Of a DNA stretch of 64,000 bases, positions 5,133 through 64,000 are shown piece after piece. Both the position numbers and the translations under genes were made by a program. The stretch's first letter is position 1. The number at the start of each line of letters is the position of its first letter. Origin of the DNA: Octopus vulgaris (lineage: Eukaryota); assembly GCA_951406725.2 (NCBI GenBank), contig OX597833.1, positions 24,428,001 to 24,492,000 on the forward strand, in the 5' to 3' direction. The notes under the pieces were generated by a model, which saw only the letters and a list, made by a program, of their open reading frames with translations, searched no databases and was not told the DNA's origin.

Positions 5133-7044
5133 GGTTAATATAGGGCGTTACGATTATCAGAAAATCAAAAAAAAATGTGTGTAATAGGTGTAAAACAACT
5201 TCCTATGAACGAATATGAAAAAAAAATTCGCGCACGCGAAAGGGGGGTGGGGGAGAGGCCTCGGAAAATTCACATCGGGAAGTTCCGAAAGCGTCTGAGG
5301 AGCTGACCCGGGCACCAAAACAAAAAAAAAATAGTGTAATATGTGTAAAACAACTTGCTCTAAACGAATATGACAAAAAAAATGCGCTCTCGCGAAAGAG
5401 GGGTGGGGGAGAGGCATCGGAAAATTTATATCGGGAATTTCCGAAAGCGTCTGAACCGGGCACAAAAACAAAAACAAAAACAGCGTAATAGGTGTAAAAC
5501 AACTTGCTCTAAACGACTATCATGAAAAAAATGCGCGCTCGCGAAAGGGGGTGGGGGAGAGGCTTCGGAAATTTCACATCTTCAGTCCACGGCCTTTAAA
5601 CTAAGAAAAAATAGTGTAATTGGTGTAAAACTACTTGTTCTAAACGAGTATCAAGAACACACACTCACACATGAATCATAAAATCATATTTCGCAAAAAA
5701 AAAAATAAATAAAGAGAAGAAATTCTGGAAAAAGTGAAGAAATGTTGGATCTCATTCCTTAGTTAAAGCTATTTTAAACATTAAATTTATGCTTTTCTTT
5801 GAAATAGTTCAGATATATGCAATTCTTCTCACTTATTAAGATGCATTTATCAGAAAAAATTATTATTTTGTGTCAATCCTTCCCTAATTATCCTTTATTA
5901 ATTAGTTTTGGCGTTTATTTTTTTCCCAAATTTATTTTTTCACCTTTACAACACTGTTTAGTAAAGCAATTAATTATCTTTATAATTTGCATATTTGACT
6001 TATTAATCAAAATTCTCTAGATGTAATATATACTAAGTAATGCATCCTTCATTTATGTGTTCCGTTCTGTATTATGCATGCGTGACTGTTTGTATGTAAG
6101 TGTGTTTAACTGTGCACATGAATGTGAATATTAAAGAACATATTTATTTACTATGATTGTTATTTTCAGAACAAATAAATCTTTTGGCTGTTATGTTATT
6201 GATGTTATTATTATTGCTAGTTAAAGGGTGGTGACTTGGCTGAATATTTTGAGTCTTGTAGTATGTAGTTGTGTTAGTCAATATTCTGAGTTCAAATCCA
6301 ACTCATTTCTTTATCATCATTATCGATGGACCACTCAAAGAGGTATGTATACATTATCATTTTCGTAACATAATTTCTGTAGTATTTCAAGATGTTTCTG
6401 ACACGTATTTTGATTCACATAGCGGAGATCCAACATTTCTTCACTTTTTCCAGAATTTCTTCACTTTATTTTTTTTTTTTTGCAAAATATGATTTTATGA
6501 TTCATGTGTGAGTGTGTGTTCTTGATACTCGTTTAGAACAAGTAGTTTTACACCAATTACACTATTTTTTCTTAGTTTAAAGGCCGTGGACTGAAGATGT
6601 GAAATTTCCGAAGCCTCTCCCCCACCCCCCTTTCGCGAGCGCGCATTTTTTTCATGATAGTCGTTTAGAGCAAGTTGTTTTACACCTATTACGCTGTTTT
6701 TGTTTTTGTTTTTGTCCCCGGTTCAGACGCTTTCGGAAATTCCCGATATAAATTTTCCGAGGCCTCTCCCCCACCCCTCTTTCGCGAGAGCGCATTTTTT
6801 TTGTCATATTCGTTTAGAGCAAGTTGTTTTACACATATTACACTATTTTTTTTTGTTTTGGTGCCCGGGTCAGCTCCTCAGACGCTTTCGGAACTTCTCG
6901 ATGTGAATTTTCCGAGGCCTCTCCCCCACCCCCTTTCACGTGCGCGAATTTTTGTTTTCATATTCGTTCATAGGAAGTTGTTTTACACCTATTACACACA
7001 TTTTTTTTTTGATTTTCTGATAATCGTAACGCCCTATATTAACC
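5133..7044. mobile_element. Non-autonomous long-TIR DNA transposon (Merlin-like or Foldback-like) with 8-bp TSD
   Basis: ~620-bp near-identical TIRs (5133-5753 / 6425-7044) starting GGTTAATATAGGGCG, with internal ~150-bp subrepeats. Flanked by the exact direct repeat AAATAATC (5125-5132, 7045-7052). No transposase inside. Confidence 0.85.
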
Positions 7045-7429
7045 AAATAATCTTCATAATAAAAGTATTTTAGCATTTTCTACCTTGTCTTATTTTGCTT
7101 ATATATATGTATATGTATGTATGTGTGTATGTATGTATGTATATATATATATGTATATATACACATATACTTTTCACACACACCACACACAGGCACACAA
7201 CACACATACATGCACGTACATGCACACACATACACACACGCACACATACACACACACGCACATGCACACGCACACACGCACACATAAACACACACATACA
7301 TACACACGGACATACACACACACACAACTTGCGCGCACGCACATACCTCATTCTCTTAAATTCTCCTCTCTTGGAAAGAACTTTTTCTTCACCCATTCCC
7401 CTCCGGTCATTTCAAAATGTAACCATATA

Positions 7430-7592: not shown

Positions 7593-7661
<69 letters not shown>

Positions 7662-7662
<1 letters not shown>

Positions 7663-7890
7663 CTTTACTACCCAAAAGGGGCTAAACACGAAGGGGACAA
7701 ACAAGGATAGACAAACGGATTAAGTCGTTTACATCGACCCCAGTGCGTAACTGGTACTTAATTTATCGACCCCGAAAGGATGAAAGGCAAAGTCGACATC
7801 GGCGGAATTTGAACTCAGAACGTAACGGCAGACGAAATACGGCTACGCATTTCGCCCGGCGTGCTAATGTTTCTGCCAGCTCACCGCCTT
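7662..7890 (-). mobile_element. SINE family A, full length, with Tx1-like tail
   Basis: Near-consensus copy between (TA)n tracts. Confidence 0.9.
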
Positions 7891-7893
7891 TTC

Positions 7894-7947
<54 letters not shown>

Positions 7948-8282
7948 AGGCGTTGGAGCAGCTGTGTGGTAAGTAGCTTGCTTACCAACCACATGGTTCC
8001 GGGTTCAGTCCCATTGCGTGACACCTTGGTCAAGTGTCTTCTACTATAGCCTCGGGCCGACCAAAGCCTTGTGAGTGGATTTGGTAGACGGAAACTGAAA
8101 GTAGCCCGTCGTATATAAGTATATATATGTATGTGTATGTTTATGTTTGTGTGTCTGTGTTTGTCCTCCCTACATCGCTTGACAACCGATGCTGGTGTAT
8201 TTACGTCCCCGTAACTTAGCGATTCGGCAAAAGAAACCGATAGAATAAGTACTAGGCTTACAAAGAATAAGTCCTGGGGTCA
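7948..8282 (+). mobile_element. SINE family C (tRNA head, CORE-like CCTTGG(G/T)CAAGT, internal TA/TG microsatellite)
   Basis: Homologous to 62322-62484 plus 63928-64000. A/B-box-like head (GGTTCAGTCCC). Confidence 0.85.
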
Positions 8283-10405: not shown

Positions 10406-10668
10406 ATAAAATAAAAAATAAATGCGCCCTTTTAAAGTCTAGCCAGGCTCATGGGCTTGGTTTCCCGGTTTCAATTGCGTATATATTCCCCAGCTGAACA
10501 GGACGCCAGTCCATCGCAACGTTACTCATTTTTGCCAGCTGAGTGGACTGGAGCAACGTGAAATGAAGTGTTTTGCTCAAGAACACAACGCGTCGCCCGG
10601 TCCAGGAATCGAAACCACAATCTTACGATCATGATGCTGACACCTTAACGACTAAGCCACGCCTCCAC
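10406..10668 (-). mobile_element. SINE family B (tRNA-derived), full length with TSD
   Basis: Reverse complement of 21503-21766. TSD AATCGTCCAA at 10396-10405 and 10669-10678. Confidence 0.9.
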
Positions 10669-21299: not shown

Positions 21300-21489
21300 G
21301 CCTGGTATTTCGTCTGCCGCTACGTTCTGAGTTCAAATTCCGCCGAGGTCGACTTTGTCTTTCATCCTTTCGGGGTCGATTAAATAAATACCAGTTGCAC
21401 ACTGGGGTCGATATAATCGACTTAATCCATTTGTCTGTCCTTGTTTGTCCTCTCTGTGTTTAGTCCCTTGTGGGTAGTAAAGAAATAGG
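21300..21489 (+). mobile_element. SINE family A, 5'-truncated, Tx1-like tail
   Basis: Consensus core and TGTCCTTGTTTGTCC...GTAAAGAAATA tail. Confidence 0.85.
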
Positions 21490-21502
21490 TATGTATGTCA
21501 GC

Positions 21503-21766
21503 ATGTGGAGGCGCGTGGCTTAGTGGTTAGGGTGTCAGCATCTTGATCGTAAGATTGTGGTTTCGATTCCTGGACCGGGCGACGCGTTCTGTTCTTGAGT
21601 AAAACACTTCATTTAATGTTGCACCAGTCCACTCAGCAGGCAAAAATGAGTAACGCTGCGATGGACTGGCGTCCCGTCCAGCTGGAGAACACATACGCCA
21701 TTGAAACCGGGAAACCGGGCCCATGAGCCTGGCTAGGCTTTAAAAGGGTGCATTTATTATTTTTTT
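21503..21766 (+). mobile_element. SINE family B, full length with 13-bp TSD
   Basis: TGGCTTAGTGG A-box, GTTTCGATTCC B-box. TSD TATGTATGTCAGC at 21490-21502 and 21767-21779. Confidence 0.92.
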
Positions 21767-22037
21767 TATGTATGTCAGCCTACAGAGTTAAGTAGTCAGA
21801 GCAGCAACGAGTCAAGAGTCTAACAGTTCATATTCTGTGACCGGTACTTCGTTGTGTCCGGGTCAAGTCTACATAGCGGTAAAGAGGTACCATATAATGG
21901 AGTAGAGTTTCATACTTCTATGACAACTATAATTCAGGTTTCGTTCTATAACTTCTTTGTGGTTGTCGCTGTTTAGCGCGAGATCAGTCTTGATAGAACA
22001 GTTCAGCACGAACACTTTTGTGATTTATTCATGCATA

Positions 22038-40531: not shown

Positions 40532-41338
40532 GAAGAAGAAGGCAACAACATCAAGAACAACAACAGCGACAACAAACAACTATAGACATTCTTCCATCTT
40601 TATTGCAAGAATGCCTTAGATATCAGAGACCCTTTCAAAGACCAAGGGTCACGTTTTTTCCCTCATACAACAATAAAGGCAATATAACCATCAAAAGTAC
40701 CATTTTTTTTACTTGATTGACCGATTGACAAATGTTTGCTTCTTCTTGTAGTATTTTCTCTTCCTTATCTTGTTTCTTAAACCTTTTCTATGTCTGTCAA
40801 CATTGGCAGCACAGCCGTAAGTAAACAGAGAAAGAAATCGAGAAAGATTAAACTAGAAAAAAAGTAAAAAGAAACACGATGATGACGGTGGTGTCTGTAG
40901 TGAAAGAGTTTGCGTGAAAAGTTTCTCGAAGCCAGCTGTAAGTAAGTCTTTCAACAAGTTAATTCGTTGCTGCAGAATATCTCACCGAAGTTGCTAGAAG
41001 CCCCTACCTAAACGTCCCCTTCATTCTGCCCATTTCTCTCTTGACTTCACAACTTATGTCTCTCATCTGTCTTTTTCTATTTTCTCTCCCCACCCTCTCT
41101 CTTTCAGAAACACATTTAATCGTCAGGGAGATTATACATTGTAGCTTACTCATCAGGAAAAAGCAACCAAATTTCCCTCAATCATTGTGAAAGGGAAGGG
41201 TACACTAAATACTATAGTTCACGATACGCACTGCCAGACAGCTGGGTGTGATAGCCATCCCTGGAACGGCTTTAGTGATGGGATCGTTAGGGTGAGCATG
41301 ACTGAAGGTTTAAGAGCAGCAGAAACAAGAGCAGTATA

Positions 41339-41572
41339 AGGTGGTGAGCTGGCAGAAACGTTAGCACGCCGGGCGAATTCCTTAGCGGTTTTTCGTCTGT
41401 CTTTACGTTCTGAGTTCAAATACCGCCGAGATCGACTTTACCTTTCATCCTTTCGGGGTCGATAAATTAAATACCAGTTACGCACTGGGGTCGATGTAAT
41501 CGACTTAATCCGTTTGTCTACCCTTGTTTGTCCCCTCTATGTTTAGCCCCCTGTGGGCAATAAAGAAATAAG
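41339..41572 (+). mobile_element. SINE family A, full length, Tx1-like tail
   Basis: Best-preserved plus-strand copy. Ends GGGCAATAAAGAAATA. Confidence 0.9.
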
Positions 41573-47359: not shown

Positions 47360-48610
47360 TGACGGATATTTGTCCTCATCTTGTTTGTTGTTAACTCAAC
47401 GTTTCGGCTGATACACCCTCTAGCCTTCATCAGGTGTCTTGGGGAAATTTCGAACCTCGGTTCTCATTCCTAAGGTATTTTTCGATGTTGTTGTTATTAT
47501 CATTATTATTCTATGTTTGACTTTTGCTTTACATTTGCACAAGCTGACTCCAAGTTTCACCCAGAGACCTCAAGAGACAACAATTTGGAAGTTCCTGTTG
47601 GTGTTATGCGTAGGGTGCCATATATTTGGTTTTGTACTTAGTGTTGTACTAGTGAATGCCTAAAAAGCCATACGAAAATTATGTTTGTTTTAAAACTTGA
47701 GATTACATAGAAAGTATTTTGCGTAGGATATGAGCAGTTCCCATGAGCACTATCTTTTGGATTTCTGCCATTTTGGGGTTTCCTGGTATCTGAGTTAGGT
47801 AGCAATCAGCCCCTTTTGCTATCACTCCCAGGGCACCTATGACAACAGGTATTGTTTTAGTCTTCAGGTTCCACATTTTGCTGATTTCTATTTCCAGATC
47901 TTTATATTTGCTCAGTTTCTGGTAGGTTTTGACAGATACGTTTATATTGATTGGGACAGTCATATCAATGAGGTGGCATGTTTTTTGTCTGAAGTCTTTT
48001 ACTATGATGTCTGGCCTATTCGCGTCTATCTTTCTCTCAGTTTGAATGGTGAAGTTCCAAAGGAGTGAGATGTGGTCATTTTCAAGCACTGGAGGTGGTT
48101 TGTGTTCCCACCAGTTTTTATCACGGGGCAAGTCCAGGCTTTTGCAAATTATCCAGTGAATATATTGTGCAGCTCTGTCATGCCTGTTGATATACTCTGT
48201 AGGTGCAAGAAGACTGCACTTGGAGACAACATGATCAATGGTTTCATTTTGTTGTTGACATACACGACATGTTGGGCTACTGCCGTTCTTGAATATGTTG
48301 ACCTGGTAGTTCCTTGTAGGTAGGCATTGATCTTGAGCTGCTATGATAAACCCTTCTGTTTCAGATTTTAAGCCAGAGGCCATAGCTATTGATGTGTCAG
48401 GGCTTTATCAACATCTGCATTATTCACTCTCTTTGGGTATTTGCCATTGAAAAGTTTTTCTTGCCATTTATCATTCAGAATATCTAAGGCAGCAGTTTTA
48501 ACACGAGTTTTCATGTGCTTAGCTTTTTCTGTGCTTGTTTCTTGTGTCTAATTTCGAAATTTGTTGTATTCGGGATTCACTTAGATATTCCTTTGCCTGT
48601 TTTGTTACTG

Positions 48611-55966: not shown

Positions 55967-56033
<67 letters not shown>

Positions 56034-56042
56034 CATACATAT

Positions 56043-56115
<73 letters not shown>

Positions 56116-56116
56116 C

Positions 56117-56148
<32 letters not shown>

Positions 56149-56687
56149 AATATCTTTATATACGCGTATATGCATACGAGTGAGTGTATTTATTATTTAT
56201 GTGTCTTTCGTTTGTGTACATAGTTTCACAGCTAATATATATAAGATTGTGTGCGTGTGTGAGTCTGTGTTTGTCTTTACACATCTGTAGTAACTCAATG
56301 TAGCTCGCCACTTAGTTTAACGAAGTGTTAGAAGGATAATAAATAGTGAACGAAGATTACTTGATACCAGATGTCATACAACTTTTAACCATTCACATGC
56401 ACGCACAAAATTTCAGACACATATACATTCACACACACACACATACACGTGTATAAGCCCCCCATTAGATATTACAGCCTTCATGCGGTTTCCTTCTACG
56501 AATTTGCTCTCAAGGCATTGGACGACTCGAGGTTTCAGTGGGGTAATAGAAGAATAGAAGATATTTATCCAATCCAAGGTGCTATGAAGTGAGACTGAAC
56601 ACGAAATCACATGGAGATAAAGTGAAGTTGTGAATCACACACGCTTGCTTGTGCCATATACATAATGTGCACACATACATACATACC

Positions 56688-56749
<62 letters not shown>

Positions 56750-56752
<3 letters not shown>

Positions 56753-57780
56753 TTATATATATAAAACTGAGAATGTGTGTCTGTCTGTCTGTGTGTTTCC
56801 CTATAAATTTGAGAACTACACAACCAATTTCATTCAAATTTTACACATGCCTTACTTAGGGTCCATGTAGTTTCATGGGCCAAAAAAAGTGTTCAACTTC
56901 TTGCCTAGAGCGAGCCCATAGCAATATCATATCTTCTCCACTATCTCAGAATTACGTGTCAAAAGTGAAACAAAAATATTTCTCTATTTTATGTCAGATA
57001 CTTTCACTTTAACAATAAAAATTATAATAACAATTGAATTATATGTAGTAAGTAATAATTAAAATCAAACTAAAGCATAATATAATCGTAACATAACAAA
57101 AGTAAAAATAGCAATTGGTATAAAATTGCATGAATGACTTGAACTTGAATAAGTGGTTTCACATGAATGGGAATAAATTAAAAATAAAATTAGCGTGCAG
57201 AAATGGAATAGTCCAGATGGCTAATAAAAAATTAAATTAAAGAAAAGACTATTGTCTATAAAGTATACAATGTAGAGATAAAAGAAGATTTGAACACATG
57301 GAGGAAAGCACCTTCGAAAAGTGTCTTGGTGCGACTATGAAAGATATCTAATCAGAGGCGGTAAATTCGCCACAATAGGAGCAAGGTTCAAGTCAACGGA
57401 GCGTGCAAGGGAGTACTCGACTCGAACTTGCAAAGTGGAAATATTTTATTTTTACCTTTATATCTGGGACATTGGACGTCCCGGAAAAAAAGTTTAAGTG
57501 CCCCCCCTCCTCAGAAGTAGAGGTAGACTGGATTGTAGCCACACTTCTATACAAAAGGGAGGACAAGATACAATTGATCAAAATTACAAGAGACGGGCTA
57601 ACAATTCCAGTCTGTTATATATTTTGAGTTATCACTAGCGATATCAAGATATAACTTTGTATTTTGCATTTTATGTGTAGATGTATATATATAGATATAC
57701 ATGTAATATGTACACATATATATACACATATATACATGCACTAGCACTATCACCCGGCAACGACGGGTCTTTAATGCTAG
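56750..57780 (+). mobile_element. Non-autonomous Helitron
   Basis: A|TC 5' end (TCTTTATATATATAAAA...(GTCT)n), 3' hairpin ACCCG-GCAACGA-CGGGT just upstream of the terminal CTAG|T. No TSD. Confidence 0.75.
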
Positions 57781-57801
57781 TATATATATATATGTACATA
57801 C

Positions 57802-58209
57802 GCAAATGAATAGTAACAGATGATGGATAAATGTCAGCTCATTACAGCAGCTTCTTACGCTTTCTTATTTTAATAGAAGAATGAGTACATTACATCTCTT
57901 CAAAAACCCGTATTAATCAGATGAAACATAATTTCAAAACAATAGAATATCCCATGAACATGAGGGGAACATGCCTGAAACCAGTCGAAGCTGAAAATGA
58001 AATTGGAGAAAAGCAAACAAAATTTGGCTGTTATGAGATATTCTGTTATGGGCTGTTCTTGGGATATTCAATTGTTTTCAAATTATGTTTCATCAGATGA
58101 TTACAGTTTTTTGGAATGATGTAATGTTCTCAGTCTTCTATTAAAAAGATGCGTAAGAAACAGCTGTAAGGATGTGACAATTATCCATCGCATGTTATTA
58201 ATCATTTGC
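57802..58209. mobile_element. Old MITE/foldback with diverged ~155-bp inverted repeats
   Basis: 57802-57960 is the approximate reverse complement of 58054-58209 (e.g. GATGAAACATAATTT / AAATTATGTTTCATC). Confidence 0.65.
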
Positions 58210-58423
58210 TTATAATACACCATTGGGATTCACGGCACGTCGGACACCCTGGAATATACTAAACAAACTAGGAACAACACAGCGTGTATTTTGGACCTAG
58301 GGGAGGTTCTCTCTATGGATACAACCTGAATATCCTACTGGATATTTAATCGGCCATAGGTGGTGACCAAGGGTTTATCAAACCATACCTGGTACGTATT
58401 CTTTTAAGAAACTGATTATATGA

Positions 58424-58462
<39 letters not shown>

Positions 58463-58472
58463 GGTACGTATG

Positions 58473-58537
<65 letters not shown>

Positions 58538-58539
58538 AA

Positions 58540-58742
58540 AGTTAATCCAAACAAGATAGCACAAAGAAACACAACAACGGGAGGACGTGGAACAAATATA
58601 GTACTATCGGACGCTCAGGAAAGAAGGAAAGAAGGAGGGTTTAACGTTTCGAGCGGAGCTCTTCGTCGGAAACATGGGAGAAGGAAAGATCCAGAGAAGG
58701 GAAGACAGAGGAAAAAAATCGCCAACGGTACACAGGCGGTCA
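58540..58742 (-). mobile_element. HHR family 2 repeat (motif 58639-58673, CCGACGA variant)
   Basis: Minus strand GTTT-CCGACGA-A-GAGC-TCC-GCTC-GAAACG-TT-AAAC. Homologous to 34745-34950. Flanked by (TA)n/(CA)n. Confidence 0.75.
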
Positions 58743-58748
58743 CACACT

Positions 58749-58857
<109 letters not shown>

Positions 58858-58934
58858 ACATATATATACATATATATGTATGTATGTATGTATATATATA
58901 AATAATTATAAAACCATATATATATATGTATATA

Positions 58935-58994
<60 letters not shown>

Positions 58995-61254
58995 CACACA
59001 CATTCTAGCATACAGGTATAAAAGAAGGTGGAGAAAGTAGCAATCAAATGCGAAAAGGACCAGAGAAACCGCTGTTCTAAACTCAGCTCTCGTAAAGTTT
59101 TTCAGTTTCAATAAAACATTATATCTAAATGTTTATATATATATCTTTGTGTGTGAGTATTTGCGACTATGTGTATGTGTACATTTGAGTTTGATCATGC
59201 ATACTGTTTAGGACAGTAAAACAGTTTAAATAAAAATAAAATGAGGCAAGGGAAATAACTGAAGCGGGTGAAGGTGATGTACTCAATGACGGATCTGTTT
59301 TGGTCTTCCTGCAGTAAGTAGCAGCTAATTATCTTAGCTTAGTCTACTTATGGTTGCTTTGATCGATCGTCTCGAGTGACGCTTTAATGGGGTCATACTT
59401 TTGAGCCCGAATTGAGTTTATACCCGAGTGGGAAGGAGCAAATACAAGGGCTTGCCCCAGACAACACACACCCTAACTATGCCACTGCTGCTGGAACATC
59501 GTGTAGATGTAATACAAATTGCAGTTGTGTTATTGCTGTTGTGTTATTGCTGTTGTTGTTGTTTAATTTCAGGTCAGCCTTTGATCTTGCAGCCTTATAA
59601 TTAAATTTAACTTCGAATGTTATCAACAATACATAGAACTGGTCTATCACTTGCCTCCCTTTTTTTTTCAGTTGGAAAAGTGATGAAAGACTGAGTGCAA
59701 TTTATTAAGCTTTGAACTTCGACACATAAGCGATACAACAAACAAGTGTAACATAATTATAAGCACCAAGTAACTATGTTGATGCCACTGGGTGTTAGAT
59801 ATCAAGTTAACCATGACCTGATCACAACGACGTTGCCTGCTGGCTTCAGTATGTGGTTATCCAGTTTATAAAGTTTTATTTTTTACTATATGTGAATGCA
59901 TACATGTAGAACGCACCCCTGAGGCATTTTACTTCAGCCATATTGTTGATATATATGTATGTATTATGTGAGTGTGTGTGTGTTTGTATGACAGCAATAA
60001 GTGTGTGTATTCGTGTATATTTGTGTATGAGCTCACATGCTGAGAGTGGAATTTCGTTCTCCACGAACTCTGCTGGAATGTGATAAATTAGAGTATGTCA
60101 ATCAGGTTTTTATCACAATGAATGTAAGTACTGTTGATGATAATGGTGATGCTAATGATGGCATTACTTTTGTTGTTGTCGTTGATGATGATGATAATGA
60201 TGATGAGGATGATGATGGTGGTGTTGCTGGTGTTATTGATGATGATGATGGCGATATCTCTTCTACTACCGATGTTAATGAGAATAATGAGTAGGAGGAT
60301 GATGGCAGTTGGTTATCATCATGATGACCAACAAATTGTATGATATATTTCATCAAGTCTCTTTCTAAGTTCAAATCACACCAATATCGATTTTGTCTTT
60401 CATTGATAAAATAAGTAGTAGTCACGTATTTGTAGCTGATTTAATCGACCGCACTCACTCGGAATAGACCGCACTCAACCTTGATACAAGTGACATTGTA
60501 TCGAGGTTAGAAAATGATGATGTCGTTGTGGTATGAATCTACCTCTTAACAAAACCGTTCCCCCAAATCCGGATTTTTGACAAGTTTAATGAATGAAAAT
60601 TGTTCTTGTTACAGACTATTTTGCAAAAAAGAGAAAAATAAAAGAAATCTTCTGAACGTTTGGAGATTTACTTGAGGGAGAAGGAAAGATGTGGTTATAG
60701 ACATATTTTTATTTATGTATTTACATTTATTTCAATATGGCTTCTCGCTCTAGAGGAGCGCGAAACGCAGCCTCAAATAACAATGAACATAACAATACCA
60801 AGTACAAACATAATAAAAAAAATGACAAACTCAATTATACAGACGAACACACTTTGACACTTGAAGATATCATGACATCTGTTAACAAATTTCAAGGTCC
60901 AACTAAAACTATTAACAAGGTTAACAACACTTTTGCTTGCGTGGATATCCAAAGAGAGCTGTGTAAGGGTCGAAAGGCATTTACGCTCTGAATTCAAATC
61001 CTGCCGAGGTCAACTTTGCCTTTCATTTATCCGGGTTAGTTATTTTGAAGTACCAGTCATACACTGGCATCGATGTAATCGACTAATATTCTTCTTTAAA
61101 TTTCAGGACAACAATTATAAATGATGACAATGGCAATGATAAAGATTATGGTGATAATGATGATGATGATAATAATGAGGATGATGATGATGATGATGAT
61201 GGTGGTGGTAATGGTGGTAGTGGTGGTAGTAAGACGACGGTATAGAGAATAATA

Positions 61255-61458
61255 ATCCTTTCTAATTTTGGCACAAGGCCAGAAAATTTGAGGCGAGTCG
61301 ATTACAGCGACCCCTGACCTCAGCTCGTAGTTATTTTATCGATCTCGAAAGGATGAAAGACAAAGTTGACCTCGGTGGAATTTGAACTCAAAAGTAAATG
61401 TGGAAAGAAACGGTGCTAAGCATTTTGTCCGGTGTAGATTCTACCACCTCCCCGCCTC
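61255..61458 (-). mobile_element. SINE family A
   Basis: Similarity to family consensus. Confidence 0.8.
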
Positions 61459-62011
61459 CAATACAGAAAATGATAATGGTAATAGTGCTACTGTTGCTGA
61501 TATTAACGATGATAATGAGGTTTATGGTGATGATGAAAAGAACGATGAAAATGGCGGTGATGGTGGTGGTGGGGATGATGATGATGATGATGATGATTGT
61601 ACACATCAATGAAAAACGTAATGAAGAGGTCAGAGCACAGTTGGCGGCCAATACGTATAACGACATTCTGGCATTGTCAGTGATTGCAGTTTTGCAAAGA
61701 ATTAAGTACAGTTAAATGCAAAACACTTCAGTGCCTGAGTACAATATTGCTGATAATTAATTCTAACGATTGCCACAGATATGAGCAGAGTCTACGACCT
61801 GGAAAGCATGAGCTCAGAAGGTGCAGTTGACGAAACTAAATCTTTCATGGCATTAGCTGCGTTAAGTCAGGCGCTCTTTTATTGCTACTCTTAATCTATC
61901 ATCAATCACTTGTAAGAGCTTAATAATATTTCATAAGATTGAGATGGGGGTGAAAAATAGAGATGACGGAATATAATTAGTAATTAACGGTTTAATTATT
62001 TAATACATAGT

Positions 62012-62056
<45 letters not shown>

Positions 62057-62126
62057 TTGTATATGTGTATAAATATATACTTATATAACTATATATATAC
62101 AATTATATGCATATACGTATACTTGC

Positions 62127-62201
<75 letters not shown>

Positions 62202-62483
62202 TATATATACAGTTATCCATCTATCCGTACATACGTACAAAAGTACAACACACACACACACAAGCACACACATACATATACTGTATATGAAGGCTAAGTG
62301 TGATTTGAGTATATATATATAGGCGCAGGCGTGGCTGTGTGGTGAGAAGCTTGCTTCTCAACCACATCGTTCTGAGTTCAGCCCCACTGCGTGGGACCTT
62401 GTGCAAGTGTCTTCTAATATAGCTTCGGGCCGATCAAAGCCTTGTGAGCGGATTTGGTAGACGGAAACTGAAAGAAGATCGTC

Positions 62484-62537
<54 letters not shown>

Positions 62538-62742
62538 GAGAAGGGTAGTAATATTATTTACTACCAGGTGCCCAGCACAAAAGACGAATTAGTCATAAGA
62601 CAAAAATATTATTCATATAGAAAAATATTATTCATGTAGTTATACAATTAAGGGCTCCTAAATAAAGATGCCGAGTGCTGGGAACACAAAAAGGGGATGA
62701 ATTTATCGAGAGTGAAAATCAAAAACGTTTACCGATAACTTT

Positions 62743-62824
62743 AACAACTCGTACCGCGGTTTCTGCTTCTTTCTAGCAAAACACAGAATATGTTTGCTAA
62801 GGCCAGCTTCATCAGCGAGTCGCC
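62743..62824 (-). ncRNA. Type I hammerhead ribozyme (inverted unit)
   Basis: Exact reverse complement of 63242-63323. Confidence 0.85.
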
Positions 62825-63241
62825 TAAATTTAATCGAGGTCTGCAGCGATGTGGGACTATGTGTTGAACCCGACTACTAGCAGATCTTAACTTTTCAAAT
62901 CTCTGCGCAGACGCAAAATTTACACGGGCATGCCGGGAAGAATTTTACGAATAAATCCATCATGTAATATGCGAATATAAACTACATGAATAATATTTTT
63001 CTATATGAATAATATTTTTGTCTTATGACTAATTCGTCTTTTGTGCTGGGCACCTGGTAGTAAATAATATTACTACCCTTCTCGTTTATATTCGCATATT
63101 ACATAATGGATTTATTCGTAAAATTCTTCCCGGCATGCCCGTGTAAATTTTGCGTCTGCGCAGATATTTGAAAAGTTAAGATCTGCTAGTAGTCGGGTTC
63201 AACACATAGTCCCACATCGCTGCAGACCTCGATTAAATTTA

Positions 63242-63323
63242 GGCGACTCGCTGATGAAGCTGGCCTTAGCAAACATATTCTGTGTTTTGCTAGAAAGAAG
63301 CAGAAACCGCGGTACGAGTTGTT
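63242..63323 (+). ncRNA. Type I hammerhead ribozyme
   Basis: Stem I GGCGACTCG/CGAGTTGTT, CTGATGA (63251-63257), long stem II (GCT..TAGCAAA/TTTGCTA..AGC), GAAA (63303-63306), short palindromic stem III ACCGCGGT, cleavage triplet GTA (63312-63314). Confidence 0.87.
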
Positions 63324-63686
63324 AAAGTTATCGGTAAACGTTTTTGATTTTCACTCTCGATAAATTCATCCCCTTTTTGTGTTCCCAGCACTCGGCATCT
63401 TTATTTAGGAGCCCTTAATTGTATAACTACATGAATAATATTTTTCTATATGAATAATATTTTTGTCTTATGACTAATTCGTCTTTTGTGCTGGGCACCT
63501 GGTAGTAAATAATATTACTACCCTTCTCGTTTATATTCGCATATTACATGATGGATTTATTCGTAAAATTCTTCCCGGCATGCCCGTGTAAATTTTGCGT
63601 CTGCGCAGAGATTTGAAAAGTTAAGATCTGCTAGTAGTCGGGTTCAACACATAGTCCCACATCGCTGCAGACCTCGATTAAATTTA

Positions 63687-63768
63687 GGTGACTCGCTGAT
63701 GAAGCTGGCCTTAGCAAACATATTCTGTGTTTTGCTAGAAAGAAGCAGAAACCGCGGTACGAGTTGTT
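63687..63768 (+). ncRNA. Type I hammerhead ribozyme (second tandem unit)
   Basis: CTGATGA at 63696-63702 and GTA at 63757-63759. One C-to-T change in stem I keeps pairing (U-G). Confidence 0.87.
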
Positions 63769-63862
63769 AAAGTTATCGGTAAATGTTTTTGATTTTCACT
63801 CTCGATAAATTCATCCCCTTTTTGTGTTCCCAGCACTCGGCATCTTTATTTAGGAGCCCTTA

Positions 63863-63933
<71 letters not shown>

Positions 63934-64000
63934 GTGTGTCTGTGCTTGTCCCCTCACCATCGCTTGTCTCCTCACCATCGCTTGACGGTCGATGTTGGTG

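Follow-up and report, generated by a model that had tools for sequence, protein, structure and literature searches.

A young hammerhead-bearing insertion in Octopus vulgaris, probably a non-autonomous Penelope-like retrozyme

Animal non-LTR retrozymes are described as non-coding tandem units of 150–450 bp with a GC content under 50% (PMC7229834; bioRxiv 10.64898/2026.07.22.740005), and the hammerhead ribozymes (HHRs) of invertebrate retrozymes usually have an 8-nt palindromic stem III (PMC7229834). Their identity with non-autonomous Penelope-like elements (PLEs) has already been proposed (bioRxiv 10.64898/2026.07.22.740005; Li, Clavereau and Pollet); the preprint argued the Penelope link from co-occurrence and from pLTR phylogeny in vertebrates. 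Among the PLEs, the HHRs of the Hydra clade frequently show a T/T left unpaired where stem II begins, and stem III palindromes of 8–10 nt (PMC8557442, File S2). At the 3′ end, non-autonomous Chlamys elements such as MRC1 generally look like the autonomous family they belong to; canonical HHRs are missing from most Chlamys (PMC8557442). A tail that is often present at one end only is already on record for PLEs (PMC8557442, Fig. 2 legend), and Poseidon PAc of Anolis has an optional tail, delimited by two internal start sites of the RT (Frangieh et al. 2024, PMC11167929).

How does a hammerhead array in the octopus genome compare with these systems? The array lies towards the right-hand end of the 64,000-nt stretch that was analysed (the window). 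A preliminary description took it for a young HHR-bearing tandem element mobilised in trans, a view that the dispersal of its family and an empty copy of its target site bear out. We put at about 85% the probability that it is a recent non-autonomous PLE copy, that is, a non-LTR retrozyme consisting of a pLTR-like unit without an ORF, inserted in one event and in trans by a PLE RT/GIY-YIG endonuclease.

The insertion and its target site

The insertion is bounded by two target microsatellites identified with TRF, (TA)25 on the left (62485–62534) and (TA)31 on the right (63867–63929). Between them TRF reports a period of 445 bp at 62980–63870, in 2.0 copies at 99%. We took 63426–63870 as the reference unit and numbered its positions 1–445. 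The two direct units, 62981–63425 and 63426–63870 on the plus strand, differ at four positions (63105, 63165, 63244 and 63339). In size and composition they are what a retrozyme should be: non-coding tandem units of 445 bp with a GC content of 37.5%. The longest stop-to-stop frame within the array is 67 aa, and three PLE proteins gave no tblastn match at E ≤ 1e-4 to the dimer, in keeping with the earlier view of the units as non-coding.

That view had also counted three ~99% identical units of 445 bp. The two direct units are indeed such a pair, but the third is an inverted, permuted arm of 453 bp (62530–62982, minus strand), which runs from unit 104 to 445 and then from unit 1 to 111. In blastn, 63084–63536 aligns with 62982–62530 at 99.6% identity. 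The two arms meet 5′ to 5′ at 62981–62982 with an overlap of 2 nt. The 3′ end of the inverted arm, at unit 111, is a tail end and adjoins the left (TA)n, while that of the second direct unit, at unit 445, is a short end and adjoins the right one. The first reading overlooked this inversion, together with the fixed 3′ ends and the tail of 111 nt.

The tail region, unit 1–111, lies between the two fixed 3′-end sites and occupies 63426–63536 on the plus strand. It holds a 19-bp duplication (63427–63464) that is present in this family and absent in its sisters B and E. An 8-bp hairpin (63501–63522, plus strand), 14 nt upstream of the tail end, is kept in family B with a compensatory change and may serve as an RT-positioning element. 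A conserved tail motif has 1,228 matches in the genome, against none for its control.

What did the insertion interrupt? To its left, at 62318–62486 (plus strand), lies one part of a host repeat that we take to be SINE-like, and to its right, from 63930 to 64000 on the same strand and on past the end of the window, lies the other. Elsewhere the two parts are 20–76 nt apart, over a TA/TG linker, in 26 listed cases among 74 matches to the left part, some loci being duplicated in that listing. One uninterrupted copy, at 7945–8281 of the window, provides the empty target site. On sequence grounds, we conclude that 62530–63870 was inserted as a single retrotransposon, and that its target was the (TA)n linker within a common host repeat.

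The window contains other repeats. An element of about 1.9 kb at 5136–7045, with long terminal inverted repeats (arms 98–99% complementary) built from subrepeats of about 150 bp, has the look of a young DNA transposon of foldback or MITE type. Frames of 229 and 233 aa at 1139–1825 and 47706–48404, both on the minus strand, match zf-RVT (E 2e-9 and 3e-5), by which we identify them as the 3′ ends of LINE-type retrotransposons. Dispersed repeats of about 200–260 bp, about 90% alike and in opposite orientations, lie at 7649–7890, 10406–10662, 21305–21769 and 41338–41570. No tRNA gene was found in the 64-kb window.

The hammerhead motif and the family that carries it

Three HHR cores of sequence CTGATGA, each followed by GAAACCGCGGTA, start at 63251 and 63696 on the plus strand and at 62815 on the minus strand; the tandem pair is thus exactly 445 nt apart, as first described. 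The motif of the first direct unit (63242–63323, plus strand) is of type I. Its stem I, read from the sequence, pairs 63242–63250 with 63315–63323 through nine base pairs, six Watson–Crick and three G·U. CUGAUGA occupies 63251–63257 and GAAA 63303–63306, and stem III is a perfect palindrome, ACCGCGGT, at 63306–63313. The motif recurs in the second unit at 63687–63768, so that, as expected of a retrozyme, two consecutive units carry it, and in the inverted arm at 62743–62824 on the minus strand, where its ends were placed by offset from the plus-strand copy. Cuts are predicted after the GUA ending at A63314 in the first unit and at A63759 in the second, which would yield a 445-nt monomer, and after 62752 in the inverted arm.

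Is this a complete hammerhead? The preliminary description said so and was right about stem I, the two core strings, the palindrome and the unusual length of stem II. Stem II, however, is broken by an internal loop, and its base is an A·A mismatch between A63258 and A63302, positions 10.1/11.1 in HHR numbering. The predicted active fold of the monomer has an energy of −20.8 kcal/mol, 2.0 above the minimum of −22.8 kcal/mol, and the intermolecular duplex of the palindrome is predicted at −14.1 kcal/mol. As a linear molecule the monomer pairs with itself little more than chance would give (z −1.39, 8 of 100 shuffles equally stable), which differs from the highly self-paired monomers of non-LTR retrozymes. 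Cleavage is probably weak, or occurs as a dimer through the palindrome, or is aided by a protein.

The Rfam search suggested earlier returned no hammerhead among 42 matches at E ≤ 1 in 56000–64000 of the window, and at the gathering score it returned none in four other loci, which included Hydra and Neptune elements. We regard the missing match as uninformative. The case for the ribozyme consequently rests on the motif and on its covariation. In an alignment of 13 rows, 9 of the 12 named pairs change on both sides, although these are not independent events, since the rows come from just four families. Stem I is paired in 98% of cells. Stem III is palindromic in all of them, taking the forms ACCGCGGT, ACTGCAGT, ACCATGGT and some of 9 nt, so that the palindrome noticed in the window is kept as such across the sister families. 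The 10.1/11.1 pair is unpaired in 11 rows, G–C in one and A–U in one. We read these changes as selection on the HHR stems across sister families.

Contigs from four sequencing runs contained neither joints nor pile-ups of ends; such contigs carry no information on ends, strand, level or circles. A candidate intron 3′ of the HHR, from a GT at 63335 to an AG near 63388, was noted by eye, and no corresponding joint is listed in the run contigs.

How widespread is the element? A DNA search of the 2.8-Gb host genome gave at least 129 matches, with the best 40 of 845 candidates scored. The youngest HHR variant occurs exactly 48 times, and a 20-mer of the HHR, with up to two mismatches, has 231 matches (control 0). 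The copies are dispersed over many contigs. We mapped 71 distinct loci, chosen as best-scoring or HHR-pattern matches; this choice favours young HHR-bearing copies, and older or shorter ones are under-sampled. Their insertions range from 0.4 to 9.8 units in length. The three copies in the window have a C at unit 103 that is absent from every other one of the 71 loci. For 60 near-full units, drawn from 39 loci, divergence averages 0.64% inside a locus and 2.2% from one locus to another.

Besides this family there are sister families, three or more in number and all older, with covariation in the stems of their HHRs. Family B, reached through a relaxed HHR pattern, has a period of about 430–450 bp and the same two classes of end; over its full length it is 64% identical to the present unit (score 356, against 106 ± 12 for shuffles). 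Two further families are represented by single copies in L146 and L186. A separate and older repeat family (L131–L134, L136, L138–L140) has an HHR with a short stem II, and shares with the present one the ACCGCGGT palindrome and an A·A or A–U at the base of stem II. Further distinct HHR motifs with long stems II lie in the flanks of L014, L054, L059, L090, L122, L137, L160, L168, L190, L203 and L212. The octopus genome, to judge from these motifs, seems to be rich in HHR-bearing PLE ends.

Could the array be a local satellite or palindrome, produced by DNA duplication, unequal crossing-over or misassembly, its HHR-like motif being accidental or dead? Near-identical tandem units, the absence of an Rfam match and the A·A mismatch in the core are what one would then expect. 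But the copies are dispersed over many contigs, their ends are fixed, an empty target site exists and the HHR covaries. Moreover, at the four positions where the direct units differ, each through changes of its own, the inverted arm keeps the base of the family majority. The ends, the haplotypes, the covariation and the empty site largely refute this explanation, which we hold to be very improbable.

The family is a new one of a known kind, since both retrozymes and non-autonomous PLEs are already known. It adds one more animal retrozyme, and in the literature searched, most of it outside subscription journals, we found no report of one in octopus. The family may already stand in the curated repeat library of PMC13282606, because that study counts 31 recently active Penelope-like families among octopus repeats.

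Ends, arms and the RNA template

Where do the copies end? In the 71 loci we located 109 outer 3′ ends, in the sense of the HHR. Fifty-seven of them fall at unit 109–120, 36 at 444–445, four at 424/427 and 12 elsewhere; 95 of the 109 adjoin TA-rich DNA. There are thus two fixed 3′-end sites about 111 nt apart, the main ones falling on TATA/ATAT words of the unit; the precise junction is blurred, as alignments run on into the (TA)n. Outer 5′ ends, of which there are 33, are scattered.

Two arms are present in 38 of the 71 loci. All 38 inner junctions are head-to-head, with an overlap of 1–9 nt in 23 of them. Classing 3′ ends at unit 424–445 as short and those at 109–120 as tail, we found one short and one tail end in 31 of the 38 and an atypical end in seven; short with short and tail with tail did not occur. 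At an expectation of 0.5, 31 of 31 classifiable pairs has a two-sided p of 9e-10. In family B the pairing is short with tail in eight of ten two-arm copies, short with short in one and atypical in one. For this strict pairing we found no earlier report in the literature searched, mostly outside subscription journals.

Do the two arms derive from the same RNA? Haplotype comparisons within loci are concordant in 660 of 676 cases. When the arms are compared at 13 subfamily-diagnostic sites, 179 of 183 positions match and 33 of 35 loci show no disagreement; the discordant L019 and L033 count against our reading. Arms taken from different loci, as a control, agree at 931 of 2110 positions (44%).

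What served as template? The proposal that a released linear 445-nt monomer was reverse transcribed has not survived the mapping of the copies. None of 116 5′ ends lies at the HHR cut site (unit 335), two lie within 330–340 and 132 aligned pieces run through the site, which rules the linear cleaved monomer out. Rare variants are mostly either common to all units of a locus (21) or confined to a single one (92), six being partial; the six partial against 21 all-unit variants disfavour unequal crossing-over after insertion as the main source of arrays, with L040 and L049 as possible instances. In L049 (G000:C5:72143300-72147700), an array of ten units, one unit bears at 281/282 both alleles of another subfamily, which suggests a mixed template, conversion or an effect of assembly polishing.

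Within the preferred reading, it is quite possible, though short of an even chance, that HHR cleavage and ligation produced the template as a covalently closed circle of 445 nt, with multimers arising by rolling-circle reverse transcription. The model is that of the preliminary description and of Cervera and de la Pena (PMC7229834). Seamless arrays of up to 9.8 units, the lack of 5′ ends at the cut site and the conservation of the HHR across families only 64% identical would suit a circle, as would the variant counts, which star-like arrays made in one go predict. The same pattern is, however, predicted by uncut linear multimer transcripts, and in vitro the dominant PLE substrate was unprocessed RNA (PMC11167929). 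The weak self-pairing of the monomer, the mixture of some diagnostic alleles in L049 and the failure of eight of nine Xenopus retrozyme dimers to cleave in vitro (bioRxiv 2026.07.22.740005) likewise speak against it.

Fixed 3′ ends, frequent 5′ truncation, partial tandems and an inverted 5′-truncated copy at the 5′ end, the marks of a non-autonomous PLE, are all present in the family, and an optional tail at one end is a further one, its 109–120 nt comparing with a published 30–40 bp. In our analysis these marks match published PLE features (PMC8557442, and PMC11167929 for two RT start sites). Because inversion of one arm, fixed 3′ ends and a tail of 111 nt make up a Penelope-like signature, 'retrozyme' and 'non-autonomous PLE' mean the same thing here.

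The (TA)n target, the fixed 3′ and variable 5′ ends, the head-to-head inversion, the pairing of short with tail ends, the single haplotype and the read-through of the cut site are all seen in genomic copies. The mechanism that we propose from them is as follows. A PLE RT/GIY-YIG endonuclease, acting in trans, would nick both strands of the (TA)n target, and each 3′-OH would pair with a short UAUA/AUAU stretch on the RNA. Priming would take place at unit 445, the upstream site, for one strand and at unit 111/119, the downstream site, for the other, and both strands would copy RNA from a single source, presumably an uncut multimer or a circle and not the linear cleaved monomer. The two 5′-truncated cDNAs would then be joined by microhomology. 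The length of the tail, 111–119 nt against a published 30–40 bp, counts against our reading. The mechanism itself, with its TATA microhomology and strict asymmetry, has against it the non-homologous priming and the absence of a strand difference in vitro described in PMC11167929.

A bolder reading, which we think doubtful, sees protein-free circular RNAs that parasitise Hydra-type PLE enzymes, forming an old lineage that renews itself and is inserted by asymmetric twin priming. Such a lineage would have been kept through at least four families, down to 64% identity, without an autonomous counterpart. A dimeric RT would prime both target strands at two fixed sites flanking the conserved hairpin and roll round one RNA source, and the HHR palindrome would serve to dimerise the RNA no less than to cleave it. 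Were it true, the copies would be a direct genomic record of the unresolved Penelope steps of second-strand synthesis and tandem formation.

Candidate helpers and known relatives

If a PLE enzyme inserted the element in trans, which one was it? We sampled three PLE clades in the genome: Neptune, Poseidon-like and Hydra. The Poseidon-like family is mostly decayed among the top matches of a protein search. A young Neptune PLE, found through a search for the GIY-YIG family, has an ORF of 781 aa and many copies 98–100% identical; it ends in (TA)n, with the two-end pattern and a tail of about 36 nt. In its loci L081–L088 (e.g. L084:768-4468) an extra ORF of up to 479 aa lies upstream of the 781-aa RT-EN frame, and a minimal HHR with a U3–A8 core variant is apparent by eye.

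A young Hydra PLE has an intact ORF of 717 aa with RWK, DKT and CxCX5C, likewise in many copies 98–100% identical; the ORF has no Pfam match. This element targets (TA)n and has two 3′ ends about 70 nt apart, and its two-arm copies pair short with tail in 12 of 14 cases. In its HHR-like motif stem II is long and interrupted and stem III is a palindrome of 9 nt, and ATTGTATA precedes the short end both there and in the present family. The core in L237–L251 (e.g. G000:C8:30168300-30174300) is CCGAAGA or CCGATGA instead of CTGANGA. A 20-mer of the published Hydra-1_oBim ribozyme has 343 matches in the genome, against 13 for the control.

Is either of these the parent? A DNA profile of the four families matched neither the Hydra loci L207–L251 nor the GIY-YIG/Neptune loci at E ≤ 1. 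Local alignments of the present family, made against five pLTRs, stayed at z ≤ 2.0; for the sister families the highest score (z 4.9) fell to a Neptune 3′ region and not to Hydra. In the Hydra, Neptune and Poseidon families sampled, the search for an autonomous element whose pLTR is homologous gave no result, and motif searches of the PMC8557442 supplement gave nothing except a chance match in a Chlamys element.

We rank the Hydra-clade PLE as the most likely helper, followed by Neptune and then others. The odds on Hydra are slightly better than even; Neptune is possible but distinctly less probable, and that young Neptune PLEs likewise target (TA)n with two ends counts against Hydra. The absent profile match, the z ≤ 2.0, the best sister score being to Neptune and the fact that 8-nt palindromes are usual in invertebrate retrozymes make the assignment, drawn from sequence comparison, a leaning and not a result.

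The copies might instead be 5′-truncated 3′ ends (pLTRs) of an autonomous PLE, and not a self-standing family. PLE insertions are mostly 5′-truncated (PMC8557442) and our sample is part of the family. Furthermore, degenerate PLE ORFs are joined on the same strand to family sequence in L109 (1070–2144; a Neptune remnant) and L167 (127–1897; a Hydra remnant, next to family B). Both ORFs, however, are cut just before the C-terminus and far more decayed than the element. In multimers the tail continues straight into the next unit with no ORF, and tblastn with the three PLE proteins gave matches in only 4 of the 71 loci, among which the fragments in L102 and L122 lie near the element but are separated from it by microsatellite. 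We consider this alternative improbable. The joins in L109 and L167 are candidates for insertion with deletion or for template switching. As parents, L109, L167 and L174, where PLE ORF remnants touch family copies, were rejected and read as independent or chimeric insertions.

The value of the family is mechanistic: its structure (tail, inversion and target) ties retrozymes to Penelope-type insertion. Its interest lies less in the ribozyme than in two testable rules with a quantitative form, namely that two-arm insertions have one short and one tail end and that their arms copy one haplotype. The strictness of the pairing and the single source constrain models of second-strand synthesis by PLEs. 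Because an intact candidate enzyme, the 717-aa Hydra ORF, is present in the same genome, both rules are testable in vitro; the young intact Hydra PLE of L237–L251 is a good candidate for such work.

How, finally, does the octopus family stand beside the described systems? Like non-LTR retrozymes, it carries a single type I HHR in each unit, with a stem III that is short and palindromic, and forms arrays from dimers to multimers. Unlike them as described, its insertions show an inverted 5′-truncated arm, two fixed 3′ ends and a (TA)n target; the word 'inverted' is absent from the main text of PMC7229834. Its stem II is long and interrupted and its monomer weakly self-paired.

It shares with Hydra-clade PLEs (PMC8557442; Hydra-1_Obim) the (TA)n target and the (TA)n insertion with an HHR near the 3′ end, the palindromic stem III and the base of stem II, which in that clade is often unpaired, and with the resident Hydra element the interrupted long stem II, the two 3′ ends and the pairing of short with tail. 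It differs from them in the length of its tail (111–119 against about 70 nt), in that comparison of the DNA detects no homology with the Hydra pLTRs that were examined, and in having no ORF, and hence none of the RWK, DKT, CxCX5C linker and C-terminal GIY-YIG features of a Hydra-clade ORF. Being without an ORF, it is not filed as Hydra; it is Hydra-like in its HHR and its ends only.

The Chlamys elements of MRC1 type differ from it in that the octopus family has an HHR motif and no matching autonomous 3′ end was found among the families sampled. With PAc (PMC11167929) it shares an AT-rich target, and it would also share two internal RT start sites, the cutting and extension of both strands and an insertion for which HHR cleavage is not needed. 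The two part company at the ends: PAc has a tail of 30–40 bp and, as reported, non-homologous priming and no strand bias in vitro, whereas the octopus family has TATA/ATAT ends and a strict pairing of short with tail.
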